Shown in pieces: positions 524-31,664 of a stretch of 64,000 bases of DNA. The notes beneath the pieces were generated by a model, which saw only the letters and a program-made list of their open reading frames with translations, searched no databases and was not told where the DNA came from. Within the stretch, counting starts at the first letter, position 1, and each line of letters begins with the position of its first letter. Made by a program: the position numbers and the translations under genes. The DNA comes from Candidatus Woesearchaeota archaeon (GTDB taxonomy: Archaea > Nanobdellota > Nanobdellia > Pacearchaeales > GW2011-AR1), in assembly GCA_964612895.1 (NCBI GenBank), contig CAZTFL010000001.1:265043-329042 (forward strand), given 5' to 3'.

Positions 524-1095
524 TTATACTATTCCTATTAGTAAATTAATTTCATTATATTATTTAAATATATCTTAAATACATAATTTAGATAATATAA
601 TTTTTTTAATAATTATATATATGAAATTATAATTTAAAATAATTAAAAAAGTATCAAATATAACAAATTACCTTTATTTATTTAAAATACTAAATGTAAA
701 AAAATATATATCTTGTTTGAACGTTTCAGGTCATTCTGATGGGGGGGAAAAGGTGACTACAAAATATTATTTTTTAGACTCTGTGGACACATTTTTTAAT
801 GTTTTTTTGTATTGTTTTATCATAAAATCCAAAGTTGATTTAAGGTTGTTATTCTTTGAATATTCTTGTAATATTTGTTCGTAATTATATATTTTTCTTC
901 TCTCGCTCACCATCAGTGTGGTGTCTGTTTCGTGTCATATATATATCTTGTCGACCACCAACCTGTGACACAAATATAACATTTTACCGAGAATAAACTA
1001 GATTGTGCGAAAGTACGCCCATGGAAATGACATACTTTATAGACCGCCCCAACCGCCGTGATTGGGACGTTGTGGTTTTTAGGGGTGAATAGATA

Positions 1096-1398
1096 TCAAG
1101 CAGTTATAGAAGGCAAATTTGATGAACTATTAAATTCATTAATTACCCACTTAACTAACTTATATACAAAAAATAAAAATCCTATTATTCCTACAATTCC
1201 ACTTATTAAAATCCATAAATTAATACTATCCCAAAATGTATTCTCTTGTTTTTGTATTATCTCTTTGGTTTGATTGTTAGGAGAACTATCTTTTATTGTA
1301 TTAAAAATAATGGCTGCAATAAAAATTAAAAGAATAAATGAAATTGTACTAATTATTTCTTTTGAAAAATAATTTTTTAAATTAAAATTTTTACTCAT
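1096..1398 (-). CDS. Small hypothetical membrane protein
   Basis: 100-aa ORF with two hydrophobic helices (ISFILLIFIAAIIF and ISGIVGIIGFLFFVY). No recognisable family. Confidence 0.3.
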   Translation of the reverse strand: MSKNFNLKNYFSKEIISTISFILLIFIAAIIFNTIKDSSPNNQTKEIIQKQENTFWDSINLWILISGIVGIIGFLFFVYKLVKWVINEFNSSSNLPSITA

Positions 1399-1500
1399 TG
1401 AATAAATTTGAAAATAGATTATAAAAATTTTATCTTAATTATTTGTCACCTTCTGGTGGACCGACAAAATTTATAAAATCCTTCCATCGCACACACAACA

Positions 1501-2661
1501 ATGAAACGGAGTGCAATTAATCATAAAATAAGATACCAAAACTGGAAAAATAATTATGGTAAGAGAATTCCAGATATCAGTGAAGAAAATTCAAAAATAA
1601 TATTAAATTATATTAATGATATGGAATATGGTCTTAATGTTGGAAAAAGTAGTAAAAAAGGAGGTAGAAGTTATAACCGACTTTATAATTTACAACAGAG
1701 GATGGTTTTCATAACAAAAAGATTAGAATCTTTCTATGGAGTAAAAGATTTAACTAAAATAGAAGAAAGAGAAATTCATGAATTTTTTACTGGAATGAAA
1801 AGTGGTGAAATAAAAAGAGTAGATGGTGGTATATATCAAGATCCTGCAAATTTTGTTAAAATTTTTAAAGCTTTTTGGCATTGGCATCAGAAAGTTAATC
1901 GTAAAAAAGGAATCGAAATTTATGATATTACTCAAGACTTAGATACTAGTGTTGATAAACCAAAATGGGTTTACTTAACTGAAGAAGAAATAAGGCTTCT
2001 TTATGATAAAGCTCAATATCATTACAAAGTATTAATAATGTTTCTTTTTGATACTGGGATAAGAGCTCCTAGTGAATTAATTAATATTAAAGTTTCAGAC
2101 TTTCAAAATAATTTTAAAGAATTAATAATTAGAGATGAAATAAGTAAAACTTTTGGAAGAAGAATAAAATTAATGATTTGTTCTGACATTATACGAGGTT
2201 ATATCAAAAATGAATCTTTAAAAAATGATGATTTTTTATTTAATCGAAGATCTGATACTATTAACCAATATTTACAGAGATTAGCTAAACGAGTATTGGG
2301 AGAGAAAAAAAGTCCTGCTGGCCAAAGATATTCTGAATTAACAATGTATGACTTCAGACATTGTAGTTGTTGTTATTGGTTACCAAGATATAAATCTGAA
2401 TCTGCATTAAAATATAGATTTGGTTGGAAAAAGTCAGATAAGATTCATTATTATTCTGAACTTTTAGGGATGAGAGATACTATAAGTGAAGAAGATATGT
2501 TAATAGATGTAACTAAAACAGAAATTGAAAAACAATTAACTAAATCTGAAAATAAAAATGAAATATTACAAGAAAGAGTTGATATCTTAGAAAAACAAAT
2601 GAAGATATTAGCAGAAGCAACACAAAGAATTTTATTGAAAAGTCAAGGATATTTATGTTAA
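1501..2661 (+). CDS. Tyrosine recombinase / phage-type integrase
   Basis: LFDTGIRAPSEL matches box I with the conserved Arg. DFRHCSCCYWL matches the H-x-x-R box. IHYYSELLG fits the catalytic Tyr region. The C-terminal coiled-coil tail is atypical. Confidence 0.7.
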   Translation: MKRSAINHKIRYQNWKNNYGKRIPDISEENSKIILNYINDMEYGLNVGKSSKKGGRSYNRLYNLQQRMVFITKRLESFYGVKDLTKIEEREIHEFFTGMKSGEIKRVDGGIYQDPANFVKIFKAFWHWHQKVNRKKGIEIYDITQDLDTSVDKPKWVYLTEEEIRLLYDKAQYHYKVLIMFLFDTGIRAPSELINIKVSDFQNNFKELIIRDEISKTFGRRIKLMICSDIIRGYIKNESLKNDDFLFNRRSDTINQYLQRLAKRVLGEKKSPAGQRYSELTMYDFRHCSCCYWLPRYKSESALKYRFGWKKSDKIHYYSELLGMRDTISEEDMLIDVTKTEIEKQLTKSENKNEILQERVDILEKQMKILAEATQRILLKSQGYLC

Positions 2662-2727
2662 AAAAACCACAAACTTAAATATATCTTTTTCTTAAAAAAT
2701 TAAAGAGGCACAATTATTTTATTAAAC

Positions 2728-5304
2728 ATGAAATTAAAAAAATTAAATAATAAATCTATTAAAATAATACTTCTTTTATTAATCTTCATCTCATTATCAT
2801 TAGGAATAGCATATGCTTCTGGAGCATTCTTAGGAGGAAGTAATGAAGTCTCCTTAACAAAAGGATTAGTCGGACACTGGAAATTAGACGAAGAAAGTAC
2901 GATAGATTTTACTATTAATGAATATTCTTATCCTACATTTGATACATCAAATTCAAATGGTGGATGGAGTCATTGGGGCAGGAGTGGTGCAATAGGAAGT
3001 TATTCTCAAAATACAAATAAAGATTATATTTTTAATAAATCAAATACTTATTCACATAGGGTTTCAAATGGACCTAGTGCTACAGGTGAATATCTTTTAT
3101 ATAAATCTCCATCAATCGAAGGTATTACTAATAGATCTCTTTCAGCAATTGTAAAATTAAGTGATGGAAGCCAAGTTACTAATGATAAAATCTTTCCGTC
3201 ATGGAATGCTATTACTTCAGGAAGTATTCCAAATAATATGTGGACTTCAATAGAATATTTAGGTGATGGTTTTTATTTATGTAAAGCTGAAGGTATTAAA
3301 CAAGATGGAAGTAATGATTTAGTTGGAATTTATGTTTCACCAGGCATAGAAGCTTATTTTTCTATTGTTCAATTAGAACAAAAAATCTATTCTAGTTCAT
3401 TTGTAAATGGTGCTAGAAATGGTACAATTGATGATAGAAGTGGATATTCAAATAAAGGAATTAATTATGGTGCAATTTTAACTAATGGGATAAAGGGAGA
3501 AAGTAAAGGGGCCTTAAGTTTTGATGGTATTAATGATTATATAGAATATGATGATAATAATAATCTATTTAATTCATTACCAATTAGTTTTTCTATTTGG
3601 TTTTATCAAGATGGTACTCGTAGTGGAGATTTTATTAATAAATATTATTCTGGTTCTGTTAATGGTTATAGTATTACTTTGTCTCCAACAGGAGGTATAA
3701 GACTTTATTATTTTAAAGATGCTTCAAATTATATAGAATCTTATAATGGTTATTATGGTCAACCAATATTAAATTCTTGGAATCATGTTGTTGTTAATGT
3801 TGATGAAAATAATGCGAAAATTTATTTAAATAATAATCTAGTTGTAACTAAAAATTGGGTTGGAACTTCCGGAAAACCTACAACAAATCAAAAATTATCT
3901 TTAGGTCGTTATCCTGGATCAACAAATGTTTATTCAAATAATATTATTTCAGATGCTAGAATTTATAATCGTGCCTTATCAGAAGAAGAAATAAAATTAT
4001 TATATGATTCTTATAAGCCTCAAACAACTATTGGAAATTTGAATAAAGGTTTAGTTGCACACTATCCTTTAGACGGAGGATATGAAACAAAAGATATAAC
4101 TTCATATGAAAATCATGGAACTAATTCTGGTGCAACCTTAAGTACAGGAGTAAAAGAAGAAGCAAATGGAAGTTATCTTATAGGAACAACTCAAACAATA
4201 AATATTCCTTATAAAAATCAATTGAATGTTAAAAATGCAATAACTATTTATGTTTGGTTAAAAAGAAATTCAACTTATACTCAATCGTCTGATTGTTTTT
4301 ATATTTCTAGACAACCTTCTTGGTACTTTTATGATTCTTATGGTAGTGGAGAGATTAGGGCTGAAGTATTCATAGATGGAACCCGAAGAGCAGCAAGAAC
4401 AGTATCTTTACCTTATGATAATAATTGGTATAACATTGCATATACTTACGATAGTAATACTAAAACTGGTTCTATTTATAGAAATGGATTATTTATTTCA
4501 AATATTACTTTATCTGGATTATCCAATTATTTGATTGATGATTCTTCTTCAGGTATAAATATGGGAAGCGGTGGTGCTGGGAAAAAAACATTTATGTCAG
4601 ATGTCCGTATTTATAATCGAGCATTAAGTGCAGAAGAAATAAAATTATTATATGATTCTTATAATCCTCAAACAACAGTAGCTTCATTAAATAAAGGATT
4701 AGTCTTAGACATGCCTCTAACATCAACTTGGACAAAATCTGAAACACCTGGTTCTGAAATCATAACAGATAAAACTCCTTATTCAAATAATGGGCAAAAT
4801 TATGGGACAGTACTCTCTGGTGAAGGAGCCACATTTGATGGAAGTAATGATTATATTGTAACAGGATGGGGTCAAGGACTTAATCCTTCAACAAATCCTT
4901 TAACAATAACAATGTGGGTTAAACCAAATAATGTAAATTCAGCTACTATGTTTTTTTCTAATAGACAATCGGGAGGATCAAGTAACCGTCTTTATATAAG
5001 CATATATAATGGGAAATGGGATTTAGGAATTCATACAACTACTTGGGGTAGTGGAACAATTAATGCAAATACAGACTGGAATTTCATTTCAGTTGTTATG
5101 GATGGTTCCCAAGCTACAATGAAAGCAAACTTACAAACAACAAGAACAATTTCTTATGGCTCTTATAATTTAAATTTAAATGCACATTTAGGAACACATG
5201 ATCTTAATTATTGGTATAATGGATTAATTAAAAATGTTAGAATATACAATAGGGCTTTATCAGATGAAGAAATAAAATTACTTTATGACCAAGGTAAAAC
5301 TTAA
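2728..5304 (+). CDS. Secreted LamG/concanavalin-A-like lectin repeat protein with signal peptide or N-terminal anchor
   Basis: N-terminal KLKKLNNKSIKIILLLLIFISLSLGIAYA is signal-like. Three or more LamG-type modules each end in the diagnostic motif (D/N)xRIYNRALS(x)EEIKLLYD. Confidence 0.6.
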   Translation: MKLKKLNNKSIKIILLLLIFISLSLGIAYASGAFLGGSNEVSLTKGLVGHWKLDEESTIDFTINEYSYPTFDTSNSNGGWSHWGRSGAIGSYSQNTNKDYIFNKSNTYSHRVSNGPSATGEYLLYKSPSIEGITNRSLSAIVKLSDGSQVTNDKIFPSWNAITSGSIPNNMWTSIEYLGDGFYLCKAEGIKQDGSNDLVGIYVSPGIEAYFSIVQLEQKIYSSSFVNGARNGTIDDRSGYSNKGINYGAILTNGIKGESKGALSFDGINDYIEYDDNNNLFNSLPISFSIWFYQDGTRSGDFINKYYSGSVNGYSITLSPTGGIRLYYFKDASNYIESYNGYYGQPILNSWNHVVVNVDENNAKIYLNNNLVVTKNWVGTSGKPTTNQKLSLGRYPGSTNVYSNNIISDARIYNRALSEEEIKLLYDSYKPQTTIGNLNKGLVAHYPLDGGYETKDITSYENHGTNSGATLSTGVKEEANGSYLIGTTQTINIPYKNQLNVKNAITIYVWLKRNSTYTQSSDCFYISRQPSWYFYDSYGSGEIRAEVFIDGTRRAARTVSLPYDNNWYNIAYTYDSNTKTGSIYRNGLFISNITLSGLSNYLIDDSSSGINMGSGGAGKKTFMSDVRIYNRALSAEEIKLLYDSYNPQTTVASLNKGLVLDMPLTSTWTKSETPGSEIITDKTPYSNNGQNYGTVLSGEGATFDGSNDYIVTGWGQGLNPSTNPLTITMWVKPNNVNSATMFFSNRQSGGSSNRLYISIYNGKWDLGIHTTTWGSGTINANTDWNFISVVMDGSQATMKANLQTTRTISYGSYNLNLNAHLGTHDLNYWYNGLIKNVRIYNRALSDEEIKLLYDQGKT
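3952..4029 (+). repeat. Intragenic direct repeat, copy 1 of 2 near-identical ~78-bp segments. Copy 2 is at about 4600-4677, and a third, diverged copy is at about 5233-5301.
   Basis: Copy 1 reads gatgctagaatttataatcgtgccttatcagaagaagaaataaaattattatatgattcttataagcctcaaacaac. Copy 2 reads gatgtccgtatttataatcgagcattaagtgcagaagaaataaaattattatatgattcttataatcctcaaacaac. Confidence 0.7.
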
Positions 5305-5446
5305 CTTAATTGGTAGAAATAAATAACTCTAAAAAATTATAATAAAATAAGATACTTTTGAACAAAAAGATTATTTAGAATTAATTAAAATTTTTCTTAA
5401 TTTTAGATAAAGTAAATTATTTAAATAGATTCTATATATATTATAT

Positions 5447-6304
5447 ATGGAAAGAATTAATACACGTTCTGTTTACATTGATTTCAAGAATAAAGGATTA
5501 TTAGAAAAGAAATTTAATATTAATAATAGACTCTTAACTGCATATATTATTCCTAGAACACTGGTGTCGGAAGCAAAAAAATTTTTTGAAGATAATATAA
5601 TCAATAATCGAGGTATTTACTATTTAATTGAAGAAGATGAAAATAGTCCATTACAAAAAATTTATGTTGGACAAACAATTAATGGTATAAAAAGATTAGA
5701 TGATCACTTGAAGAAAAAAAATTATTGGGGCAAGGCAATAATGTTTTTATTTGATCATAATGAGGATAATGATATCGATCTTAATGCTTTAGAAACTTAT
5801 GCTCTATCTAAATTAATAGAGCTAAGAAAATATGATGTTCAAAAATATGACGTTCAAAATAAGCAAATAACCGATAACAAAATGGATTATAATAAGACAG
5901 ATGTAATAAAAAAATGTTATAATTTAATTAAATTTTTAATGATCTCTTCAGGATATTCTTTAGAGTCAAATCAAAATAATAGTTCTATATTTAGAACAAA
6001 CAGAAGAGGAATAATTGGTTTAGGAATATATACTGGAAATTCTTTTGAATTAATTCAAGGTTCTGAAATTGATGTAAATATCCGATGTAACTTGGATAAA
6101 TATAATCAAATGCGTGAAGAGCTAATAAACGAGAATATATTAGTTAAAGAGGGTGAAAAATATATCCTAAAAAAGAATTTAGAATTTAAAACTCCAAGTG
6201 GAGCAAGTGATTTTGTTTTAGGTGGTGCTACCAATGGATGGACTGAGTGGAAAAACAATGAGAATAAAACATTAGATGAAGTTTATAGAAAAATAAATAA
6301 TTAA
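5447..6304 (+). CDS. GIY-YIG superfamily nuclease-domain protein (T5orf172/DUF4357-like). Possible restriction endonuclease partner of the adjacent MTase.
   Basis: The motif RGIYYLIEEDENSPLQKIYVGQT has GIY, a 13-aa spacer, then YVG. It is followed by KRLDDH, which supplies the conserved Arg. The gene is convergent with the MTase at 6429-7073. Confidence 0.45.
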   Translation: MERINTRSVYIDFKNKGLLEKKFNINNRLLTAYIIPRTLVSEAKKFFEDNIINNRGIYYLIEEDENSPLQKIYVGQTINGIKRLDDHLKKKNYWGKAIMFLFDHNEDNDIDLNALETYALSKLIELRKYDVQKYDVQNKQITDNKMDYNKTDVIKKCYNLIKFLMISSGYSLESNQNNSSIFRTNRRGIIGLGIYTGNSFELIQGSEIDVNIRCNLDKYNQMREELINENILVKEGEKYILKKNLEFKTPSGASDFVLGGATNGWTEWKNNENKTLDEVYRKINN

Positions 6305-6428
6305 AATTAATTGTTATTACAACAACCATCATCATATCCATCAGCATAAACTTCTTCTAGTAAATTATCAATTTCTTCATCAGTTTTAGATTTCTTTAAA
6401 CTTTTTCTTTTTTCTTCAATATTATAAT

Positions 6429-7073
6429 TCATATTTTACCTCCATCAGATTTAGTTACATCTATCCATCTCTCGTCTAATTCAATACCAATCCACTTTCT
6501 ATTCAGTTCATTACAAGCTTTACAAGTAGAACCAGAACCTGCAAAGGGGTCTAAAATTAGGTCTCCTTCTTTAGAACTATGTAAAATAATTTTTTTCAAT
6601 AAATCTAATGGTTTTTGATGAGGATGATTTAGTTTATTATGATTAATATGTGAAGAAGTTTGTACATCAGAAAAATCAGTTAAATTATATTTTGGTTTTC
6701 CTTTTTCTAAAACTAAAATTAATTCATATTGATGCCTAAATGCCCAACCTAATCCAAAGTTATGTTTTTTCCATACGATTAAATGTCTAATATTAAATTT
6801 AGTATATCTAATAATAAATTCTGTTAAAAAAGGATAATGTTTCCAGTTTGTGAATATATAAAGAGAACGATTTTGTTTTAGGATACGATACATTTCAATT
6901 AAGGCATTACAATTAATTAAAGGATTTTCATTATTTTTGATTATTTTATTATTCCAACCATAAGCAACATTATCTCCATAAGGAGGATCTGTTAAAATTA
7001 AATCTATACAATTGTTGGGATAAGTTTTCATTATTTGAAGACAATCTCCTTGAATTATTTTATTTAGTTCCAT
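6429..7073 (-). CDS. DNA N6-adenine/N4-cytosine methyltransferase, beta-class (N4/N6 MTase domain)
   Basis: ILTDPPYG is motif IV (DPPY). DPFAGSGSTCKAC is motif I (FxGxG) and lies C-terminal to DPPY, which is the beta-class order. The protein is 214 aa. Confidence 0.75.
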   Translation of the reverse strand: MELNKIIQGDCLQIMKTYPNNCIDLILTDPPYGDNVAYGWNNKIIKNNENPLINCNALIEMYRILKQNRSLYIFTNWKHYPFLTEFIIRYTKFNIRHLIVWKKHNFGLGWAFRHQYELILVLEKGKPKYNLTDFSDVQTSSHINHNKLNHPHQKPLDLLKKIILHSSKEGDLILDPFAGSGSTCKACNELNRKWIGIELDERWIDVTKSDGGKI

Positions 7074-7328
7074 TAATCAATTCATCAAGTAAAGCATTTA
7101 TTTCTCTTAAATTATAAATAATCTGATCAAATAAATCTTCAAAATTATTTTCTTCCATAATTAATCAATATAAAAAAGAATATATAATAAATCGGAAACA
7201 AAAAGTGGATAATTTTTTGGATAAAAAAAGTCTCCGATTTCATTTATAAGGATATAATCTCATCACATCATGACAAAAAAATGTTATGTTTGTGGAGATT
7301 TTATTATTGAAGGAGAAATCTGTACTAC

Positions 7329-7724
7329 TTGTTTAAATGTATTAAAATTAAAATATCCAAACAAAAAAGAATTAGAATCCATTTTACAATGGCACAAAAT
7401 AAATGCCGAATTAAATCAAGAAAGTTGACTATAACTCCAATATTATTATTGTTGTTTTTGGTTTTACAATTAAGTTTGGTTTTAGCATCAAGTGAATCAG
7501 ACTTTGAAGAGATTTTACAACCATTAATGACAATTTATAACTTGGTGAAATATGCAGCAACAATAATAGCAGGACTAGTAATGTTATTTGCTGGAATAAC
7601 TTATATCTCTAGTGGATCAGATCCTGGGAAACGAGAAAAAGCAAAAAATATGGTTATGTACGTTATTATTGGTTTAGCAGTAATTTGGGCTGCACCTTTT
7701 ATAGTTGACTTAATATTGAAATGA
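7329..7724 (+). CDS. VirB2/TrbC-like or CedA1-like small pilin/membrane protein. True start is probably the internal Met at about 7389 (MAQNKCRIKSRKLTITPILLLL).
   Basis: A signal peptide ending LVLASSE is followed by two hydrophobic helices. The loop motif YISSGSDPGKREKAKNMV is shared with the N-terminus of the ORF at 9039-9860. Confidence 0.5.
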   Translation: MFKCIKIKISKQKRIRIHFTMAQNKCRIKSRKLTITPILLLLFLVLQLSLVLASSESDFEEILQPLMTIYNLVKYAATIIAGLVMLFAGITYISSGSDPGKREKAKNMVMYVIIGLAVIWAAPFIVDLILK

Positions 7725-9052
7725 AGAAATTTCTTTTTTGGGTGGTTGTTTTTTTATTACCACTAACAACCGCCCTTAATTGTCAAGAATTAAATAAAGA
7801 GTATCAAGAAATTTGTTTTAAAATTAAAAGTCTTAATTTATCTCAAGAATATGAGACTAGTCTAATTTTAGATATGATTAATAATTGGAGATTAAAACCA
7901 AATCATGAATTTGTTAATAATTGGAATTCGGGTTTAAAATTAAATAATTCTCCTTATAACAGAGGGGTTGGAGCAGAGTATATCCAAGATGCTTGGTTTA
8001 ATATTTTAACGATAAGTCCTTCTGTTAAAGAAGATAATATTCTATATGTTCCTAATAAAGCAAAAATTTTCTCTGCGTATAATTATCAAATATCCCATCC
8101 AACTAAACTTTATCCAGGAGATTGTAAAACCGAATATAAATTAGTTGAAAATACATCAACATTAGAAATTTATGCTAATAATGAATTAATTGGAAATGAT
8201 AAGATTACATCTTTTGAAATAACAGATAAATTAGATAATATCACTTTTGTAGGAATACTTTCTATAAGAGTAAGATATCAAGTAATTAGATATAGATTAG
8301 TGAATAGTGTTTGTACATTTTATCGTGATACAGATTATACAGGTGAATCTACTGTTAGAAATGATGTTTTAATTGTAAGATTGTATAATAATAATTTAAA
8401 TTTTGATTTGAATCTTACCCCACAATATAATCAAACGATTCAAGGGGAATTAATCTCAAATAATTATACAGCTATTAATTTATTCTTTGGAGATTCATAT
8501 TATCAAAAAACAAAGTATCAATATTATTATGAATTTGAATCAGGAAATGTTTTATCAATTAAAGCAAAAAAAGACGAAAAAATTAATTATTCACAAATTA
8601 TTGTGAACTCTTTTTTAAACAAAGTTATTTTTAAAGTTAGTCAACCTTCAGAATGTGAAATTAGAATTTATGATCACTTTAATTTTAATTCTAAACATTG
8701 TGAACTTAATTTTTTAGAAGAAGAAATTAATATAATAATAGATAATAAAACTCATTTTAAAGAAAATGAAACAATAAAAATAGAGATTATTCCTAGAGAT
8801 GTTTATGTTAATGTTACTTATGGAAATAAAAAATTTATAGTTAAAGATAAAATTTATTTGAATGCAATTCCAGGTCAAAATGAGATTATAATAGAATTTG
8901 ATAATAAAACCATAAGGAAAATAATAACTGTCTTTGATTCATCCAAACTAAAAACTATAAGAAATATATTCCTTATTTTAGGTTTGACTTTTGTTATTTA
9001 TATTATCCTAAAGAAATTTTATATTTCATTAAATTCAAATGAGCGAATGTAG
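7721..9052 (+). CDS. Surface/exported protein with N-terminal signal peptide and C-terminal TM anchor. Part of the transfer module.
   Basis: N-terminal FLFWVVVFLLPLTTALNC. C-terminal IFLILGLTFVIYIILKKF. The start overlaps the upstream gene by 4 nt (ATGA), and the end overlaps the downstream gene. Confidence 0.4.
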   Translation: MKKFLFWVVVFLLPLTTALNCQELNKEYQEICFKIKSLNLSQEYETSLILDMINNWRLKPNHEFVNNWNSGLKLNNSPYNRGVGAEYIQDAWFNILTISPSVKEDNILYVPNKAKIFSAYNYQISHPTKLYPGDCKTEYKLVENTSTLEIYANNELIGNDKITSFEITDKLDNITFVGILSIRVRYQVIRYRLVNSVCTFYRDTDYTGESTVRNDVLIVRLYNNNLNFDLNLTPQYNQTIQGELISNNYTAINLFFGDSYYQKTKYQYYYEFESGNVLSIKAKKDEKINYSQIIVNSFLNKVIFKVSQPSECEIRIYDHFNFNSKHCELNFLEEEINIIIDNKTHFKENETIKIEIIPRDVYVNVTYGNKKFIVKDKIYLNAIPGQNEIIIEFDNKTIRKIITVFDSSKLKTIRNIFLILGLTFVIYIILKKFYISLNSNERM

Positions 9053-23766: not shown

Positions 23767-26655
23767 ATGTTTAATGAACAAAACACCGTTGAAGATTATG
23801 TAAGAGACCTTTTAGTTAAACACGGTTGGACTTTCGTTCCAAAAGAAAAACTTCCTCGTCAAGAAACAGATGTCTTAGTTGAGAAACAAGTTAGAGATGC
23901 CCTTATTAGATTAAATCCTTCAATTGAAGAAGATCATGATAGAGCGGATGAAGTTTTGTATAAATTAAAAGCCATATTGGTGTCTGCAAGAGGGACAGGG
24001 GTTGTTAAGACTAATGAAGAGTTTACTCGATGGATTAGAAATGAAAAAACCATGCCTTTTGGAGAAAATGGCGAGCACGTATCTATAAAATTAATTGATT
24101 TTGATGACTTAAAAAATAATGAATTTATTGTTACAACACAATATACTTTTATTTCTGGACAGAATAGAAGAGCAGATTTAGTTCTTTTAGTAAATGGAAT
24201 ACCTTTAGTAATCGGAGAATGTAAAACCCCTGTTAGACCTGCAATTTCATGGGTTGATGGGGCGATTCAACTCGAAGAATATCAAAATTCCTTACCTACA
24301 TTATTTGTCCCTAATTTATTCTGCTTTGCTACAGATGGTAAAGAATACAGAGTTGGTTCAATTAAACTACCAATTGAAAAATGGCAACCTTGGAAAAAAA
24401 CAACAGATACGGTTTTTGAGAAATTAACCGAATTAAAAAATTCTGTTGATTTAATGTTAAAACCTGAGATTGTTCTTGATTTATTATTAAACTTTACTTT
24501 ATTTAGCACAGATAAAACTGGACAAAGTATTAAAGTTCTTTGCCGATACCAGCAATATGAAGCTACAAAACAACTTATACAAAGAGTTATTGATGGCAAA
24601 GTTAGAAAAGGATTAATTTGGCATTTTCAAGGTTCAGGAAAATCCTTATTAATGGTTTATGCTGCACAACTTTTAAGAAAAGAACCCAAACTAAAAAGCC
24701 CGACAGTTATTGTTGTCGTAGATAGAATCGATTTAAATTCTCAAATAAGCGGAACATTTAGTGCTTCACAAGTTCCAAATATAGTAGTTGCTGAATCTCG
24801 TGAAGAATTAAAAAAATTATTAAAACAAGATACTAGAAAAATAATTATAACAACAATTCATAAATTTGCAGAGGCTAATGGGATTTTAAACGATCGAGAG
24901 AATATAATTGTTTTAGTTGATGAGGCACATAGAACTCAGGAGGGGGATTTGGGTAAAAATATGAGAGATTCTTTACCAAATGCATTTTTATTTGGATTAA
25001 CAGGAACTCCAATTAATAAGAGGGACAGAAATACTTTCTGGGCTTTTGGAGCTGAGCAAGATAAAAATGGTTATATGAATCGATACTCATTTGAGCAATC
25101 TTTAACAGATAAGGCAACACTTCCGATTTATTTTGAACCTCGACCCGTTGAATTAAGAATTGATAAAAAGGCAATTGATGATGCCTTCGATGAAATAACT
25201 GATGCCCTTTCAGATAATGATAAAGCAGAACTATCTAAACGTGCTGCGAAAATGGGGGCTTTAATTAAATCTAAAGATAGAATTAAGGAAGTTTGTAAAA
25301 ATATGGTAGAACATTACAAAGAATATATTGAGCCTAATAATTTCAAAGGACAAATTGTTGTTTTTGATAGGGATGCGTGTGATTTGTATAAAAAAGAAAT
25401 TGACAAATTATTATCTCCAGAAGAAACTGCAGTAGTTATGACTGTTAATACAAAAGAAACTGAATGGAAAAAGAAATATTTCTTAAGCGACGATGATATG
25501 GAAAAATTGCTTAATAGGTTTAGAGATCCAAAAGATCCTCTTAAATTACTCATCGTTACATCAAAGCTTCTTACTGGTTTTGATGCTCCTATAAATCAAG
25601 TTATGTATTTAGACAAACCAATGAAGGACCACACATTATTGCAAGCAATCTGTAGAGTTAATCGACCATATAATGGAAAAAATAATGGTTTAATTGTAGA
25701 CTATTTAGGAATTTTTGATAATGTTTCTAAATCATTAAATTTTGATATAAAAGATGTTCAAAAAGTAATTTCCAATATTAGTAATCTAAGAGATGAAGTC
25801 CCTAATGCTATAAAAAAATGTTTATCCCATTTTAAGAAAATAGATAGATCTATTGATGGATACGAGGGTCTTTTACTCGCACAGGATTGTTTACCTACAA
25901 ATGAAAAGAAAGATGAATTCGCTGCAGATTATTCTTATTTGAATCGACATTGGGAAGCAGTATCTCCTGATAAGTTCTTGGATAACTATCAGAAAGATTA
26001 CAAATGGTTAACTCAAATTTACGAATCTTTACAGCCTCCAAGTGGAAATGGTCGATTAATCTGGCATACTTTAGGAGCAAAGACAATCGAGCTCATCAAT
26101 AAAAATGTAACTGTTCAAACAATTAGAGATGATTTAGAGCCATTAATCATGGATTCAAGTGTTCTTGGAAGAATTAATGAAAAAGATGCAAGAATAAAAG
26201 CAAAAGAACTTGAGATGCGTATTGTCTGGAATTTACATAAACATGCAGGCGATCCTAGATTTAAGGAGCTTGGTAAGAGATTGGAAGAGTTGAAAGAAAA
26301 ACATTATAAGAATGTAATTAATAGTTTAACCTTCTTAAAAGAACTTTTAGAAATTGCTAAGGAAACCGTTAAGCTTGAAAGAGAAACAGAGGCAGAACCG
26401 ATCGACAGCTCAAGAGAAGCATTAAGTAAACTCTTTTTAGAATGCAAAGTTGAAACTACTCCAAAAATTATAGAAAAAATAGTAGAAGAAATTGATGGGG
26501 TCGTAAAGGTTACGAGATTTGATGGGTGGCAATGGACATTATCTGGAGAAAAAGAAATAAAGATGGCTTTAAGAAGAACCCTTTTGAAATATAAACTTCA
26601 CAAAGAACAAGATTTGTTTGATAAAGCATATGATTACATAAGGGAGCATTATTAA
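23767..26655 (+). CDS. hsdR: Type I R-M restriction subunit HsdR (SF2 helicase/nuclease)
   Basis: Motif I is IWHFQGSGKSLL. The DEAH box is VLVDEAHRTQEG. The N-terminal Res-III-type nuclease region carries DLVLLVNGIPLVIGECK. The protein is 962 aa. Confidence 0.85.
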   Translation: MFNEQNTVEDYVRDLLVKHGWTFVPKEKLPRQETDVLVEKQVRDALIRLNPSIEEDHDRADEVLYKLKAILVSARGTGVVKTNEEFTRWIRNEKTMPFGENGEHVSIKLIDFDDLKNNEFIVTTQYTFISGQNRRADLVLLVNGIPLVIGECKTPVRPAISWVDGAIQLEEYQNSLPTLFVPNLFCFATDGKEYRVGSIKLPIEKWQPWKKTTDTVFEKLTELKNSVDLMLKPEIVLDLLLNFTLFSTDKTGQSIKVLCRYQQYEATKQLIQRVIDGKVRKGLIWHFQGSGKSLLMVYAAQLLRKEPKLKSPTVIVVVDRIDLNSQISGTFSASQVPNIVVAESREELKKLLKQDTRKIIITTIHKFAEANGILNDRENIIVLVDEAHRTQEGDLGKNMRDSLPNAFLFGLTGTPINKRDRNTFWAFGAEQDKNGYMNRYSFEQSLTDKATLPIYFEPRPVELRIDKKAIDDAFDEITDALSDNDKAELSKRAAKMGALIKSKDRIKEVCKNMVEHYKEYIEPNNFKGQIVVFDRDACDLYKKEIDKLLSPEETAVVMTVNTKETEWKKKYFLSDDDMEKLLNRFRDPKDPLKLLIVTSKLLTGFDAPINQVMYLDKPMKDHTLLQAICRVNRPYNGKNNGLIVDYLGIFDNVSKSLNFDIKDVQKVISNISNLRDEVPNAIKKCLSHFKKIDRSIDGYEGLLLAQDCLPTNEKKDEFAADYSYLNRHWEAVSPDKFLDNYQKDYKWLTQIYESLQPPSGNGRLIWHTLGAKTIELINKNVTVQTIRDDLEPLIMDSSVLGRINEKDARIKAKELEMRIVWNLHKHAGDPRFKELGKRLEELKEKHYKNVINSLTFLKELLEIAKETVKLERETEAEPIDSSREALSKLFLECKVETTPKIIEKIVEEIDGVVKVTRFDGWQWTLSGEKEIKMALRRTLLKYKLHKEQDLFDKAYDYIREHY

Positions 26656-26700: not shown

Positions 26701-27759
26701 TTAATCTATTTTATTTAATTCTTTAATAAAAGAAATTAATATATCATATGCTTCTAAAAACTTATTATAATCCTTTCTTTCATACAACATTTCTGAAGGA
26801 ATATTCCCAGAATCTTGTCTTGAAGAGAAATCTTTATTATGCATAACAGTATTTCTAAAATAAATAATCTTTTGTATCCCTTTTTTTAATTCTTTTTTTG
26901 AAGTATATTGTAAAGATATTGCCTTTTCACTCAGTGAATAATATAGTAAATCTCTTAATTCTATATGTTGAAATGGAGGTAGTTTTTGTTCATAGATATT
27001 TTTTTCTAATTTTTCTAATTTTTCTTTATTTGAACTTTCACGATTTTTTAAAAATAGTAATATATCCTTATCCTCTTTTTTTATTAGAATTAATTTCTCT
27101 CTTAATAATCTTTCAAATACATTTAAAATAGAATAAAAATAAATATATGCCGTTGAGCTAATTAAATCACAAAAGTGTATCACTCCTACTAACTTTTTAT
27201 TATCTAATACGAATAACAAATCTCGCTTTTTTGTTTTGTCTATTAGTTCTGATAAATTAGATTTAGCTGAGATTGTATCCTCTTTTTTAAACTTTTTTTT
27301 AGTGAATCTTTTTGTTTGTTTATTAAAAAACATATAATATTTAGTAGAATTTTTTATTGGTACTTTCTCTATATCTCTTCTCAAACAAAATTCTTTTGAT
27401 TCTTCTTTGTTCTTAAAAAAGAATAACTCTTTGACCATTAATTCTTCTACAAGAATCATAGATCTTATTTGAGATAATATTTTATCTTTTCCTCCTTCAG
27501 CATAAAATTTAACTCTTACACCACCATTAATCTTCTTTGTTCCAAATTTTTGTATATCATTTTTAATAATTTGGTAATATTTTACTTTATTCTTAAAATC
27601 TTTAGAATATCTTGAACCAATCCATGCACAATAACCAACATTTAAACCAAAAGCTTCTCCAAGTTCCTCAAGACCTTTTCTTTTAGCATCTTCTTCATTT
27701 ATATTTTTTAAAATAACAGTTTTGTCTATAAATTTAATTTTAATATCTTCCGGATTCAT
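26701..27759 (-). CDS. Abi-like abortive-infection protein with C-terminal HEPN motif
   Basis: C-terminal KIIYFRNTVMHNK fits the HEPN R-x4-H signature. The architecture resembles the Abi_2/AbiD-F family. It sits between the Type I R-M system and other nuclease genes. Confidence 0.45.
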   Translation of the reverse strand: MNPEDIKIKFIDKTVILKNINEEDAKRKGLEELGEAFGLNVGYCAWIGSRYSKDFKNKVKYYQIIKNDIQKFGTKKINGGVRVKFYAEGGKDKILSQIRSMILVEELMVKELFFFKNKEESKEFCLRRDIEKVPIKNSTKYYMFFNKQTKRFTKKKFKKEDTISAKSNLSELIDKTKKRDLLFVLDNKKLVGVIHFCDLISSTAYIYFYSILNVFERLLREKLILIKKEDKDILLFLKNRESSNKEKLEKLEKNIYEQKLPPFQHIELRDLLYYSLSEKAISLQYTSKKELKKGIQKIIYFRNTVMHNKDFSSRQDSGNIPSEMLYERKDYNKFLEAYDILISFIKELNKID

Positions 27760-27819
27760 AATAATAAAACTAATCTTATCTTTAAATAATTTTTTCTATA
27801 CATTTCTTTTTTTAATCTC

Positions 27820-28338
27820 TTACTTTATTCTTTTTTCCCATTTTTCCCTTTCAAGATCTTCCAATTTTATTCCTTTTTCTTTAGCTTTTTTTCTCATAAG
27901 TTCAATATACTCTAAATAATGAGAAAGATACCCGAAAAAGGGGTAATCTTCTGAATTTATTGTATCTTTTGGTATATCGTTTTGTTTAAAACATTTCTTT
28001 TTTCTTAGTTCATTTATAGTGATTACATCAAAAGGTACATATCTTTCTGGAAATTTTATTGTAAGTATAAATGAAGCAATAGATATGGTAACTCCATTAA
28101 TATTACATAATTCTTTTATTGCATCTTCTGTTTTATCTCTTTTTGCTAATTTAAAAGCCTTTCTTGTTATTTCTTTAATCTTTTCTTCAGAGTCTAAAAA
28201 GTTTTTTTTAGGTTTAAAGTTTTTAAGTTTTAAGAGATCAGAACTAGACCATTCTTTTTTATTCCTTATTTGCTTCGCTATTTCTTCAAATTTTTTTCTT
28301 GCATTATCCATTTTTTCTTTGTTAGTTACTTTTACCAT
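27820..28338 (-). CDS. Hypothetical protein, co-operonic with the DUF2779-like gene
   Basis: 172 aa with no motifs. It overlaps the upstream gene's stop by 17 nt. Confidence 0.35.
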   Translation of the reverse strand: MVKVTNKEKMDNARKKFEEIAKQIRNKKEWSSSDLLKLKNFKPKKNFLDSEEKIKEITRKAFKLAKRDKTEDAIKELCNINGVTISIASFILTIKFPERYVPFDVITINELRKKKCFKQNDIPKDTINSEDYPFFGYLSHYLEYIELMRKKAKEKGIKLEDLEREKWEKRIK

Positions 28339-29821
28339 TTAAAACCTCCCACAATCCTTCAACAATCTTAACTTCTGCTAATGTGTCTAATTCACAATAT
28401 TTTTCTAAGGCATTTCTCATTTCTTGTTTTTCTTTAGGATTAATGTCATTAAAAGTAATTCTTTCCCATTGATATGATGCTTCATCTCCTTTTTTTATAT
28501 GCTCTAAATTTTTATAACTTAAATCAGAAATTACTGGAAGAACATATTTGATAGAGCAAGAGCCTTTTTGCTCGGGATCATAATAATAGAAATTCCTGAA
28601 AACATCCCATAAATCTTTGATTCTTGGCAGGATATTCTCCTCGTACCATTCTCTAAATTCTGGAAAAGCAATTGCTGATTCATTCAGAACTCCCTTTTCA
28701 AATCCTTGATTATACACAAGTATACTTCCTTTATCTCCTAAATTCTCTTTTAATGATTGCATAAATTTAAGTCTTGGATCATTTGTTCCATCAGCTAAAA
28801 AAGAAATATGTTTTAATTCAGCATTTTTACTTTCTTGAATATGTAAACTAAATTGAAAAGGTATCCTTTGATAAGGTTTCATTCCATCAAATTTAGGTAA
28901 AATAGGGTTTATTGTCTCAAAGTCTAAATAATAAATAGGATATTGTAAATTTTTCAAGAAGTTATCAATTTCTAATTTATTGATATGAATTCCATTATCA
29001 TAAACTAATCTTTTTTGAATTTCTTGTTTATCATTTAACTTAAAACTTTCAGGAACATCTTTCATAGTAATATAACCTTTTTTGTATAATTCTACTGCTT
29101 TTTTCTTTAATATTCTATAAAACTCAAAAATATTATCTTTAGGTAAAGAACTCATAAATTCATCAAGACATAAATTATCATATTCTATTGTTAAAACATC
29201 ATCAACAGAGAATTCTGGTTCAGGTCCTTTAATAATATTAAACATTTTATCTATGTTCTTTTCTAATTCTTCTTCAAAAGGTTTTATTTTATCAGTTATA
29301 TTTGTTTGAACAAATAATTCAGAAGGTTCAATTTGCCCATCTTTTATATATTCATTATTAATATGCATTAAAAAACACTTTCTTATTTTCAAACCTGCTT
29401 TTTCATAAACATATTTTTGAAAAGCAACATCATGTAAATTAATATCTTTTACTTTTGTAGCAGATTTTACTTCAATAATATCCCATTCATCTTTTCCTAC
29501 AGGATTAAGAATATCTGCTCTTGAATATATAATTCCTTCTTTTAATATTGCTTGAATCCCAAATTCAAATAAAGGACGTCTCATTTCTAAAGCATTAATC
29601 CCAAGTCTTAGATTTTCTTGATAATCTTCTCCAGGAATTTTAATTCCTCCTTCAAATAAAGTAGTTGCTAATTCTCCTACTAAAGTTCCATCATCAAACT
29701 TCTTTTGTTCAATTTCATTAGGTTCAGGGATTCTCTCTTTATCGTTTTTAGTAATCCACAAGAATTTAGGACATTGTATTCCTAAAAGATAGTTTGATTT
29801 TGTTAAAATTATAGGTTTCAT
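28322..29821 (-). CDS. DUF2779-like protein (predicted RecB-like PD-(D/E)xK nuclease superfamily), tentative
   Basis: The N-terminal LTKSNYLLGIQCPKFLWI resembles the conserved N-terminal signature I recall for DUF2779 proteins. 499 aa. This is a from-memory family assignment. Confidence 0.4.
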   Translation of the reverse strand: MKPIILTKSNYLLGIQCPKFLWITKNDKERIPEPNEIEQKKFDDGTLVGELATTLFEGGIKIPGEDYQENLRLGINALEMRRPLFEFGIQAILKEGIIYSRADILNPVGKDEWDIIEVKSATKVKDINLHDVAFQKYVYEKAGLKIRKCFLMHINNEYIKDGQIEPSELFVQTNITDKIKPFEEELEKNIDKMFNIIKGPEPEFSVDDVLTIEYDNLCLDEFMSSLPKDNIFEFYRILKKKAVELYKKGYITMKDVPESFKLNDKQEIQKRLVYDNGIHINKLEIDNFLKNLQYPIYYLDFETINPILPKFDGMKPYQRIPFQFSLHIQESKNAELKHISFLADGTNDPRLKFMQSLKENLGDKGSILVYNQGFEKGVLNESAIAFPEFREWYEENILPRIKDLWDVFRNFYYYDPEQKGSCSIKYVLPVISDLSYKNLEHIKKGDEASYQWERITFNDINPKEKQEMRNALEKYCELDTLAEVKIVEGLWEVLNGKSN

Positions 29822-29909: not shown

Positions 29910-30683
29910 ATGATAAAAATAAATGAAGATGTTCAAGAGATTAGGGAAGAATTAACTTCAGTTTATAAAAAATTTTTTAGAGATTTAAAGATTGATCCTA
30001 TTTCAGGCCTTACAGAGGATGGAAGAGGGAATAAACGTTTTGCAACATATGCTTATGTAGGTTCAAAATATGGTAGTAAAAAAAAGATTTTGTTTATTGG
30101 TTTAGATATTGGTAAGGATGAACCCCTAAATGGAGATACAACAAAAATAAAAGAAGATTATAGATACGGGATACAATATTTTGAAAAAAGAAGGAAAAAG
30201 ATTGAAAGGGTAACAAAAGAAGGCAAAGATTCTAAAAAAGAAGGTCATAATGCTCATATTTCTGGAACAATGATTCATGCAGGAGAGATATTGGAATTAA
30301 ATCCTAAAGAAGAATCATTTAAAGAAAAAGATTATTCTAAGGGTTATATTAAAGATCCAAGAATAATAAAACATTTTGAGAAAAATAATCCTTTATCTTA
30401 TGTAGCTCTTATAAATCTCCGTAAATTTGTAGATAAAGAGAAGCAAGATAGAGAACAGGGTAAATATGTATATCCAGAAAAGGAAAAAGAATTATTATAT
30501 AAAGAAGTTGAAAGACTAAACCCTGACTTAATAATATTACAAGGCATCAATTTTAAAAATCAAAAAGAAACTTTAAAAGAATTAAAAAAAACTAATGTAA
30601 AGGTTCGTTGTGGGTATCATCCAGCTTATCGTAATAAAAAAAGAACATTAAGTAACTTATTGAAGACATATAAAATGTTATAG
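29910..30683 (+). CDS. Hypothetical protein
   Basis: 257-aa Lys/Glu-rich ORF with no recognisable motif. Confidence 0.4.
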   Translation: MIKINEDVQEIREELTSVYKKFFRDLKIDPISGLTEDGRGNKRFATYAYVGSKYGSKKKILFIGLDIGKDEPLNGDTTKIKEDYRYGIQYFEKRRKKIERVTKEGKDSKKEGHNAHISGTMIHAGEILELNPKEESFKEKDYSKGYIKDPRIIKHFEKNNPLSYVALINLRKFVDKEKQDREQGKYVYPEKEKELLYKEVERLNPDLIILQGINFKNQKETLKELKKTNVKVRCGYHPAYRNKKRTLSNLLKTYKML

Positions 30684-30695
30684 ATCTCTTAGTTT

Positions 30696-31283
30696 TTAGA
30701 TTAAATTATTTATTTTTGATAACTTATCATATATTTTTTCTTCTTCATTTATTGCTTTTTTTATTAGATATTTTAATTCTTTTTCTTTGTATTTACTATT
30801 ATTCTTTAAAATTTCTAATGCTAAATGTAAATTACTATCTAAATCACTCAAATTATTAAAAAGAGAATTCTTATTTAACATTTTAATCCCTTCTTTTATT
30901 TCCTTTGTTGCCTTTGGTCCTGGTACTATTTTAGAGGTGGTGTAATAAATATTATTTTTTCTATCAATCCACTCTTTTTTATATGCTGTTTTAAATAACT
31001 CAGAAGGGTTTACTTTTTGATTAATAGGATTTACTTTTTTTAAATAACCTTTTTTAACATAAAATATAATACCTGATTGGATTAAAATCTTAAAAATCTC
31101 TTTTATTTCATCTGAAGTTAATTTTATATCTAAATATTTGAGTTCTTTATTTATTCTTTTTATTAAGTCCTTTTCTGAGATATAATTCTCAAGAGAATTT
31201 TCATATTTGTTTATACATTCAACAACAAGAGATATTATTTTTATCTGTTCTAATGAGGGTTTAGTTTTCTTCTTGGATTCCAT
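30696..31283 (-). CDS. Hypothetical protein (possible helical/wHTH regulator)
   Basis: 195-aa ORF with no catalytic motif. It is the last gene before tRNA-Asp. Confidence 0.35.
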   Translation of the reverse strand: MESKKKTKPSLEQIKIISLVVECINKYENSLENYISEKDLIKRINKELKYLDIKLTSDEIKEIFKILIQSGIIFYVKKGYLKKVNPINQKVNPSELFKTAYKKEWIDRKNNIYYTTSKIVPGPKATKEIKEGIKMLNKNSLFNNLSDLDSNLHLALEILKNNSKYKEKELKYLIKKAINEEEKIYDKLSKINNLI

Positions 31284-31592
31284 AAATAAATAATCAATTT
31301 AAACTTTAAATAAATTTAGAAATTAAAAAGTATATTCTTTTATGAGTATTAAAACCTATAATGTTATTACAATGTAACCACCAAATTAAATATATTAATT
31401 GTCTTTTAATCTCTAAAAATAATATTTTCTACTTTTTAACTTTTATTCAAAAAGTGGGATAAATTTTATAAAAGTACAAAAAAGGAAAAGATATCTTAAG
31501 TGATATTCAAATAAATGATGAATCTAAAATAGAATTCTTTTTAATTAAACAATAAATAAAAATACGCCCATAAAACCCACAAAAGTCCCTAA

Positions 31593-31664
31593 CGCCCAAA
31601 CCGGGAATTGGACCCGGGTCTCGAGCGCGACAGGCTCACGTACTAGCCACTATACTATTTGGGC
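31593..31664 (-). tRNA. tRNA-Asp (anticodon GTC). CCA is not encoded.
   Basis: Hand-folded from the minus strand. Acceptor GCCCAAA pairs with TTTGGGC. D-stem GTAT pairs with GTAC. Anticodon stem TGAGC pairs with GCTCG, with loop CTGTCGC. T-stem CCGGG pairs with CCCGG, with loop TCCAATT. Discriminator is G. Total 72 nt. Confidence 0.85.

Follow-up and report, generated by a model that had tools for sequence, protein, structure and literature searches.

Is the run of accessory genes between a tyrosine integrase gene and a tRNA-Asp gene, in a 64,000-nucleotide stretch of contig CAZTFL010000001.1 from a DPANN archaeon, one mobile element, and if so, how might that element move? An earlier note on this stretch, called the window below, had proposed that it holds an integrative element resembling an integrative and conjugative element (ICE). 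Our analysis makes it likely that window positions ~1045-31603 are one integrated element of ~30.5 kb, which occupies the tRNA-Asp(GTC) gene at its 3' end and may have been enlarged by accretion. For comparison, 80 metagenome loci around integrase homologues were taken, and ~90 related loci were compared overall; they are given L numbers where they have to be told apart.

That genes at this locus move can be seen from a comparison with other species. A block that runs from a DNA methyltransferase gene through a pilin gene and virB4 to a helix-turn-helix (HTH) regulator (window 6305-14095) is 97.5% identical in nucleotides (nt) to L098 and L097, which belong to another species, and window 6697-14283 is 98% identical in nt to L174. 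VirB4 is 98% identical in amino acids (aa) in L097/L098 and 99% in the relative P0121. In the same comparison the integrase gives 79% (L098/L097) and tRNA-Asp 80% (L098), the host gene beside the L098 tRNA gives 61% aa and 73.5% nt identity, and the slot at 2701-6304 is unrelated. Because the block is near-identical and the host genes have diverged, the block, which encodes parts of a type IV secretion system (T4SS), has moved recently between species, and the elements that carry it are mosaic.

The tRNA-Asp gene and the ends of the proposed element

The tRNA-Asp(GTC) gene, the integration target, was placed by ARAGORN and Rfam (60.7 bits) at 31592-31665 on the minus strand with its 3' end facing left, as the earlier note had it. 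It is 100% identical in an independent assembly (L002), and independent Logan assemblies from three runs match both element junctions with 100% identity. The proximal, attR-like attachment (att) site (31557-31603, minus strand) is composed of an arm and, as its core, CGCCCAAACCG (31593-31603), the tRNA 3' end itself. The distal, attL-like site (1012-1055, minus strand) combines an arm with the core CGCCCCAACCG at 1045-1055, which copies the final 11 nt of a tRNA-Asp and reads CGGTTGGGGCG on the minus strand; both core strings had been quoted before and were found at these positions. The arms contain the octamer ACGCCCAT (1015-1022 and 31564-31571), a pattern chosen post hoc, with 2 occurrences in 128 kb (both strands), each 29-30 nt left of the core. 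The 12-mer ACGCCCNAACCG, with one mismatch at most, is confined to these two sites, where 0.03 occurrences are expected.

A profile hidden Markov model of the 'tRNA 3' end + 40 nt', built solely from loci other than the window, returned the same two sites as its top two matches when both strands of the window were searched (31605-31557, E=0.11; 1055-1012, E=0.17). Both lie on the minus strand, and the third-ranked match had E=14. The left string CGCCCCAACCGCCGTGA(Y)T is also present upstream of homologous integrases (L085 8290-8310, L088 7717-7737, and also L091), and the proximal arm is homologous to the arm at an inter-element junction in L088 (cacaaaagtcc..). The proposed ends of the element, namely the tRNA gene and the displaced copy of its 3' end to the left of the integrase, are thus supported by the att profile and by the family comparison.

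The repeat taken by itself tells against these ends. The core repeat is degenerate, with 10/11 positions identical and 11/14 when the downstream bases are included. Local alignment of 31580-31670 against 600-1500, the check that had been suggested for the repeat, gave a score of 10 where shuffles gave 9.8 ± 1.4 (264/500 shuffles at or above the observed score), and a wider local alignment was dominated by AT-rich matches (207/1000 shuffles at or above). No long att-like repeat of the tRNA region was found by k-mer and repeat scans of the window, and the 25-nt repeat is not above chance in the window by itself. The mismatch in the core lies between TTTGGGC in the tRNA, where it is paired with GCCCAAA of the tRNA's 5' strand, and TTGGGGC in the distal copy. 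As TTGGGGC is the version in most relatives, the mismatch may mean that the integrating element was adapted to tRNAs of the TTGGGGC type.

The integrase itself (1501-2661, plus strand; 386 aa) is intact and matches PF00589 (1.9e-9) and phrog_1 integrase (1.7e-16), in line with its first annotation. Residues R188, K216/K223, R286, H287, W309 and Y317/Y318 are invariant among 115 homologues. There are >2,000 homologues with identities of 60-82%; they form a Pacearchaeota/Nanoarchaeota family that is multi-copy per genome, with four clusters on one 964,825-bp contig. Upstream, a promoter/operator region at 1435-1500 (plus strand; tgtcac N7 gtggaccgacaa .. tataaa .. ccatcgcacacac ATG) is conserved in 20 loci and is also matched by blastn in relatives. 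Between it and the distal core, the stretch ccgtgattgggacgttgtggtttttAGGGGTGaatag (1056-1095, plus strand), with AGGGGTG at 1081-1087, can be aligned by eye with the tRNA-to-integrase sequence of L098 (ttttaAGGGTGtatgg) and L156 (ttaaGGGGGTGTc) and is a candidate integrase-proximal arm.

The association of this integrase with tRNA genes holds across the family. ARAGORN found tRNA-Asp in 19/80 loci, mostly on the integrase strand and ending 80-250 nt upstream of the integrase gene, and in other loci tRNA-Glu or tRNA-Gly replaces it. Sixty-six loci had at least 200 nt of sequence 5' of the integrase. A tRNA gene lies directly upstream in 30 of them (<400 nt, same strand, mostly Asp or Glu), a plus-oriented copy of a tRNA 3' end in 12 and a minus-oriented copy, as in the window, in 11, while 13 have neither at the thresholds used, so at least 53 of the 66 informative loci carry a tRNA or a tRNA-3'-end copy just upstream of the integrase. 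A reservation applies to this count: calls of 3'-end copies used a profile from the same 66 loci, which makes them partly circular, and only the calls of tRNA genes are independent. In L173 an intron-containing tRNA directly upstream of the integrase (1680-1835) was missed by ARAGORN at default settings, and the share of tRNA-adjacent integrases is therefore underestimated.

Five complete related elements of 7-16 kb are flanked by exact direct repeats of 13-15 nt, each comprising the terminal ~11 nt of the tRNA and 2-4 nt more. They are those of L134 (7.1 kb; repeat 15/16 nt), L153 (7.5 kb; 14 nt), L156 (tandem, 8.3 + 8.6 kb; 13 nt), L163 (15.7 kb; 15 nt) and L125 (7.4 kb; 13 nt). The repeated core of L156, GGGACGGGCG, is that host's own acceptor sequence, which indicates that the repeats are copies of the local tRNA end and not a fixed motif. 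L153, L156 and L163 share the layout of the window, with the fragment on the minus strand, the integrase on the plus strand and tRNA-Asp on the minus strand.

Differently occupied tRNA sites were also found within the family. L098 and L153, from one species, are 99.7% identical over 1,256 nt of flank and tRNA-Asp, and the identity ends at the exact tRNA-Asp 3' end, beyond which different elements follow. L097 and L098 hold the same element (99.97% over 11.3 kb), which in L098 starts 18 nt past the tRNA end and in L097 follows a degenerate copy of that end. In JAGVXH010000003.1 two T4SS units stand in tandem; their junction (L088 ~7700-7745) is an arm plus a tRNA-end copy and resembles both the left site of the window and the sequence adjoining the window tRNA.

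The comparison of sites that had been called for thus showed differently occupied sites at the family level, and no empty site was found for the species of the window. This host can be placed among the DPANN archaea, in the Pacearchaeota/Nanoarchaeota group, as judged from tdk, the gene beside the tRNA (69% identity to a metagenome-assembled genome, or MAG, named 'Nanoarchaeota archaeon', 33% to a Woesearchaeota MAG), and from the named sources of integrase and VirB4 homologues, which are Pacearchaeota, Nanoarchaeota or Nanobdellota. The closest tdk relative among 5.8e9 proteins has 69% identity at most, and the tdk homologue search gave nothing nearer; a tdk-based genome scan found this one relative, with synteny of 4 genes only and no tRNA-Asp there. 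Look-ups of the window proteins led back to the same strain only. It counts against the proposed element that neither an empty site nor a circular junction was found, the host species having no close relative in any collection. No circular plasmid form was found among the VirB4 contigs, and L173 is chromosomal, with a junction of intron-containing tRNA and integrase.

Could the integrase and the tRNA then stand 29 kb apart by coincidence in a chromosomal region poor in core genes and rich in defence genes, with sites that are similar by chance? The shuffle tests confined to the window, which were not significant, are what this explanation has in its favour. It is very improbable nonetheless, as the two sites, each oriented as expected, are precisely those that the independent profile selects, other genomes also keep the left site upstream of their integrase homologues, the tRNA association is family-wide with exact repeats in relatives, and the T4SS block has been horizontally transferred. 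The block identity, the repeats of the relatives and the att profile effectively refute it.

If one integrated element is accepted, its ends would have arisen as follows. The attP of the element would carry a core matching the tRNA acceptor 3' strand between two inverted arms, each with a GGG(C/T)GT motif about 22-26 nt from the core. Recombination of attP with the tRNA end would leave the host-type TTTGGGC in the tRNA and the element-type TTGGGGC in the distal copy, and from this distribution of bases the crossover is inferred to lie in or after GGGCG. The predicted attP junction is ..cacaaaagtccctaa / CGCCCNAACCG / ccgtgattggg.., or in fuller form ...ccacaaaagtccctaa-CGCCC[A/C]AACCG-ccgtgattgggacgttgtgg..., and the predicted attB is ...catactttataga-CCGCCC[A/C]AACCG-ggaattggacccgggtc.... 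The window has exactly one candidate att pair, in direct orientation, namely the tRNA end itself and a displaced copy 450 bp upstream of the integrase gene. The flank left of the distal copy may be the arm of an older element resident at the tRNA, a situation also seen when L153 is compared with L098.

Several observations on the ends and the integrase stand beside this account. In the integrase family the tRNA-end core occurs in either orientation relative to the integrase (L098/L134 versus L153/L156/L163 and the window) at a similar distance, ~90-150 nt in compact cases, and the arms on either side of the core resemble inverted repeats. As the core orientation differs, some elements have the integrase next to the tRNA and others have it at their far end; our account describes these two orientations without explaining them, which weakens it. 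Integrase genes also occur as tandem pairs (388 + 384 aa) or as divergent pairs 200-850 bp apart (L087/L088 8838-11155, L100, L166). At 940-975 of the window the promoter/operator motif of the integrase recurs in inverted form (tgtcac N7 gtggWCGACAAG .. tatata) and faces a 48-aa open reading frame (ORF) at 767-913 on the minus strand. A decayed divergent integrase was looked for in 524-915, where there was no protein similarity, only the promoter-like motif and the 48-aa ORF. The T-loop of the window tRNA-Asp, TCCAATT, has C at the normally invariant U55 position, and the second T-loop position is T in the tRNA-Asp genes of 19/19 related loci (TTCAAxT / TTCGAxT); the C may result from recombination with an element-borne copy or be a genuine oddity of this tRNA. 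A non-coding RNA, or a tmRNA or RNase P target, in the GC-rich patch at 500-1500 was rejected, as Rfam gave only a chance-level VrrA match there.

The T4SS-like module and its proposed role in transfer

The gene order around the near-identical block is constant in ~25 loci: integrase, variable genes, methyltransferase (minus strand), pilin, a small or 443-aa protein, a 273-aa protein and VirB3/VirB4. The pilin (7329-7724, plus strand) is of the VirB2/TrbC-like T4SS type (PF18895, 3.7e-14; PF04956, 8.5e-11). It is followed by a 443-aa protein (7721-9052, plus strand) with a signal peptide and a C-terminal anchor in its hydropathy profile, a putative surface or adhesin component; this is 96% identical in aa in L097/L098, is matched by L088 over its N-terminal ~58 aa only, and is swapped for a ~124-aa protein in some relatives. 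Next comes a 273-aa polytopic membrane protein (9039-9860, plus strand) with about 5-6 hydrophobic segments by hydropathy and a pilin-like N-terminal part (weak PF18895; Mbov_0395 pilin-like in NCBIfam, 3.6e-5), whose role may be VirB6-like.

The largest gene of the module encodes a VirB3(PrgI)-VirB4 fusion ATPase of 969 aa (9862-12771, plus strand; PF19044, PF01935, PF12846, PF12666). In NCBIfam its matches to the CD1110-family (308 bits) and the Mbov_0397 ICE ATPase (291 bits) are just below or below the cut-offs, and its ATPase domain matches PDB 4AG5 (5.8e-34). At least 918 homologues were found, and those with a source name are from DPANN archaea; the nearest plasmid-borne relatives are of the Firmicutes CD1110-type, with 25-31% identity over best hits. 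In the elements of GCA_018303845.1 (L085 18243-21155), VirB3 (PrgI-like) is a separate 108-aa gene and not fused as in the window. A transfer module centred on VirB4 had been predicted here, and the VirB3-VirB4 fusion, the VirB2-like pilin and the pilin-like polytopic protein, as identified by Pfam, NCBIfam and PDB, confirm the VirB4 module.

The methyltransferase upstream of the pilin (6429-7073, minus strand; N6/N4 type, PF01555, 5e-39) had been read with the GIY-YIG gene before it as a Type II-like restriction-modification (R-M) pair (5447-7073). That reading is not supported: the methyltransferase lies beside the pilin gene, with 73-99% aa identity, in ~25 related loci whatever the cargo and with unrelated genes in the slot. 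Since it is constant while its slot neighbours change, it is an orphan backbone gene and not the partner of the GIY-YIG protein. Downstream of virB4 there are a dCMP deaminase (12818-13285, minus strand), a double winged-HTH regulator of AsnC/MarR type (13287-14225, minus strand), both recognised by Pfam, and an 85-aa protein, p85 (14360-14617, plus strand). The HTH and p85 pair recurs beside the element end, and in L134 and L088 it stands directly before the att copy. The backbone of the element would accordingly comprise the integrase, the orphan methyltransferase, the VirB2-like pilin, the surface protein, the VirB6-like protein, VirB3-VirB4, the HTH regulator and p85.

How such an apparatus would serve the element is the weakest part of the explanation. 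The T4SS would build a pilus or a mating channel that moves the element between cells, an archaeal-style conjugation without a recognisable relaxase. Transfer through the T4SS-like apparatus is the reading that we prefer, because the apparatus travels with the integrase/att unit. Three results are unfavourable to it: neither a coupling protein (VirD4/TraG/TcpA) nor a relaxase was matched by Pfam or NCBIfam among window ORFs of at least 80 aa, and no replication gene was detected in the window. The called genes of related loci (L083-L089, L173) likewise gave no coupling protein, relaxase or replication gene. Of the components by which bacterial ICEs are defined (as in CONJScan), VirB4 and mating-pair formation (MPF) genes were found and a type IV coupling protein and a relaxase were not, and of the VirB4+VirD4 signature of archaeal ICEs and pNOB8-type elements there is VirB4 only. 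Of the earlier 'integrative conjugative' reading, then, the integrative half stands and the conjugative half is unproven, no coupling protein or relaxase having been found.

These absences lend some weight to a fixed, domesticated island, in which the T4SS-like genes serve the host in cell-cell attachment, in uptake of DNA or nucleotides from the host cell or in effector delivery, with the integrase and att sites left as relics or reshufflers of cargo. A set as small as pilins, polytopic protein and VirB3/4 is also found in the archaeal Ced/Ted DNA-import systems (PMC9905601), most virB4 clusters from the Candidate Phyla Radiation (CPR) have no relaxase and are thought to be co-opted (PMC12102498), several diverged copies are present per ~1-Mb genome, and the att repeat of the window is degenerate. 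The block identity of 97.5% across species beside a flanking gene at 73.5% nt shows, however, that the block moves horizontally. It lies inside integrase/att-bounded units wherever ends are visible, the integrase is intact and under strong constraint, and archaeal conjugative elements generally have no recognisable relaxase (PMC6563490, PMC9905601). We regard domestication as possible but doubtful, and service to the host and horizontal movement would be compatible.

Cargo genes and the proposed unity of the distal 17 kb

The cargo of the proposed element would sit partly in an exchangeable defence slot between the integrase and the methyltransferase, with Lamassu and Type I R-M genes as further defence cargo. 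The slot extends from the integrase stop to the methyltransferase stop (2701-6304, plus strand); homology to L098 stops at ~2700 and resumes at 6305, and the borders are conserved coding sequence and not recombination sites. In the window it holds a secreted protein with three LamG domains (2728-5304, plus strand; Pfam) and a GIY-YIG/DUF4357 protein (5447-6304, plus strand; Pfam, and PADLOC candidate system PDC-S14). Its content is a C5-methyltransferase, a HATPase protein and a 448-aa protein in L085, GmrSD and HEPN in L088, and a phospholipase D-like nuclease with small secreted or membrane proteins in L098. The repeat unit of the LamG protein (..RIYNRALSEEEIKLLY..) also occurs in a 2,177-aa LamG/Ig-like giant surface protein (48604-55137), which lies outside the element on the opposite strand.

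Such a slot directly downstream of an integrase that adjoins a tRNA might also suggest a provirus or an integron-like cassette platform, and there is a weak NCBIfam match of the integrase to XerA/integron-integrase (40.9 bits against a cutoff of 220). We give this hardly any credence. A provirus was rejected, as Pfam and PHROGs searches gave no capsid, portal, terminase or other virion gene and the integrase has no match in 50,697 phage records. An integron was likewise rejected: TIGR02249 scored 16.8 bits against a cutoff of 265, no repeated attC-like sites flank the cargo, and the slot is bounded by coding sequence as described above.

Beyond p85 the cargo continues for 17 kb. A 300-aa membrane protein with an HELGH metalloprotease motif (14620-15522, minus strand; hydropathy, with weak Reprolysin-like matches only) and a 147-aa protein without assignment (minus strand, within 14620-15966) precede a Lamassu/ABC-3C trio of LmuB, LmuC and LmuA (16077-19423, minus strand), for which PADLOC gave 8.6e-143, 3.6e-40 and 6.1e-88 and Pfam gave MC2 and CTD6. 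A Type I R-M system follows (19536-26655, plus strand), with two hsdM paralogues (each N6_Mtase+HsdM_N), hsdS (Methylase_S) and hsdR (HSDR_N+SWI2_SNF2) together. The earlier calls of both systems are thereby confirmed. An abortive infection (Abi) gene had been listed as well, but searches of Pfam, PADLOC and PHROGs gave no Abi-family match for any ORF. The duplication is kept in L088, and each of the adjacent hsdM paralogues (19536-22543) shows ~50% identity to the L088 counterpart of the other one.

Does this distal part belong to the same element? The order T4SS, Type I R-M and DUF2779 recurs in L173 before housekeeping-type genes, where the DUF2779 homologue (53.5% aa) is the second-last gene. 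The double-hsdM system is 70-77% identical in aa in L088, where it lies between VirB4 and the next att copy, and it is thus inside an att-bounded unit in L085/L088. Between 1056 and 31556 no further att-like site turned up, the att-profile matches in that interval having E=21 or worse.

Other findings speak for a composite island, in which the part from the integrase to p85 (~1.0-14.6 kb) is recently mobile and the distal 17 kb is older or consists of stacked elements whose att sites have decayed. The elements of L134 and L088 stop just past p85, with an att copy within ~120-170 nt of it, and the window continues for 17 kb; the 97.5% identity to L098 is documented to 14095 only, where the L098 locus ends. 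Tandem stacking at tRNA-Asp is common (L156, L097, L091, L085/L088), and the GC content of the Type I R-M region is higher (0.31-0.34 against ~0.25 elsewhere in the window, and 25% for the window). Our case for the unity of the distal part would thus depend on L088, L173 and the absence of internal att copies, and that part could have been added by accretion. Against the composite island stand the att-profile result, the convergent gene that abuts p85 and leaves no intergenic space, the shared order in L173 and the att-bounded unit of L085/L088. We consider the composite island unlikely, and a single element, with or without accretion, remains our reading.

The right-hand tail contains two proteins without assignment, of 352 and 172 aa (26701-28338, minus strand), a DUF2779 protein (28322-29821, minus strand; Pfam), a protein like uracil-DNA glycosylase (29910-30683, plus strand; Pfam) and a 195-aa protein without assignment (30696-31283, minus strand); to the right of the tRNA are gyrA/B, uppP, PPDK and similar genes. 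A 105-nt non-coding stretch upstream of the 195-aa gene (31303-31407) is 94% identical, in inverted orientation, to L098 5051-5154, which lies inside the cargo slot of the L098/L097 element; a promoter common to both or a scar left by recombination may explain it. At the left end, a small ORF of 100 aa with two transmembrane segments (1096-1398, minus strand; ORF list and hydropathy) lies between the att site and the integrase promoter, a position at which relatives have other minus-strand ORFs.

Smaller relatives without a T4SS carry the integrase plus defence or other cargo only. The cargo of L153 is a methyltransferase, GmrSD and a DpnII R-M system, and that of L134 is a cysteine desulfurase-methyltransferase fusion, an HTH protein and p85. 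Such elements would be mobilisable counterparts if the T4SS elements are conjugative. Homologues of the integrase and VirB4 (P0029, P0137; 68-73% identity) were also found on a 569,417-bp contig named Methanococcoides sp. SA1, which is probably of DPANN origin and comes from an assembly that was contaminated or made from a co-culture.

Significance and comparison with known systems

The element family is large and apparently undescribed: a literature search of limited scope found no description of T4SS-bearing integrative elements in DPANN archaea. Pacearchaeota and Nanoarchaeota might, as a tentative proposal, host an undescribed self-transmissible family that uses tRNA-Asp/Glu by means of a lineage-specific integrase with an att core in either orientation, carries a bacterial-type, MPF-FATA-like T4SS without coupling protein or relaxase and a swappable defence slot, and has as mobilisable satellites the small T4SS-less relatives with the same integrase/att system. 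The genomes of DPANN archaea measure ~0.6-1 Mb, and these organisms rely on host cells. If the proposal is true, this would be the first known conjugation-like gene exchange in DPANN archaea and a main driver of defence-gene turnover. With several copies of 7-30 kb each, a noticeable share of each tiny genome would be mobile, and the family would carry most of the recognisable defence systems and move between species. The integrase and the short, defined tRNA-Asp att site would offer a natural genetic vehicle for organisms without genetic tools, and the element would be a test case for the cargo of a T4SS that has neither coupling protein nor relaxase.

A tRNA-integrated island with a T4SS is a known category, and this one falls outside both the bacterial ICE definition and the archaeal VirB4+VirD4 signature. 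Among known systems, it shares with archaeal ICEs and conjugative plasmids (Thaumarchaeota ICEs, Sulfolobus pNOB8/pING) a tyrosine integrase and integration at tRNA 3' ends, att repeats of short length (median 17 bp in Thaumarchaeota) and a tandem arrangement (PMC6563490, PMC9905601), as well as components of VirB4, VirB3 and VirB6 type and the absence of a recognisable relaxase. Archaeal conjugative elements lack a relaxase, so that its absence here is compatible with transfer, and normally have a VirD4/TraG partner (PMC6563490); they carry the pair of VirB4 and VirD4/TraG, whereas no VirD4/TraG-like ATPase was found in the window element. It also differs from them in that its VirB4 matches best to Firmicutes/Mollicutes models (CD1110, Mbov_0397), its pilins are of VirB2/TrbC type and its host is a DPANN archaeon.

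The minimal set of pilin, polytopic protein and VirB3/VirB4 without a relaxase resembles the relaxase-less T4SS of CPR bacteria (PMC12102498) and Ced/Ted (PMC9905601). The resemblance is one of architecture and not of membership, and homology to CedD is marginal (31.5 bits against a cutoff of 600). With the T4SS of Patescibacteria/CPR the module shares PF18895/PF04956 pilins, an affinity to MPF-FATA and ultra-small symbiotic hosts. The CPR clusters are described as chromosomal, often near dnaA and usually single-copy (PMC12102498), whereas clusters of the window type are multi-copy, stand in integrase/att-bounded units and are near-identical across species. Ced/Ted, too, have not been reported on mobile elements, unlike the cluster described here, which is inside att-bounded units.

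Models from the MPF-FATA ICEs of Mollicutes and Firmicutes (the Mycoplasma ICE, and clostridial elements with CD1110-family VirB4) are those that VirB4 (308 and 291 bits) and the 273-aa protein (Mbov_0395) match best, but identity is 25-31% over best hits and the scores are below curated cut-offs. Such ICEs carry a coupling protein, and their recombination enzymes are DDE transposases or other recombinases.

By description, the family is also like the tycheposons of Prochlorococcus (10.1101/2020.12.28.424599), a diverse group of cargo elements that integrate at and excise from tRNA genes and, in a streamlined genome, remodel the larger islands where most flexible genes are located. Tycheposons carry no T4SS, and dispersal via vesicles and phage particles has been proposed for them; it is the small T4SS-less relatives, such as L153 and L134, that resemble them most.

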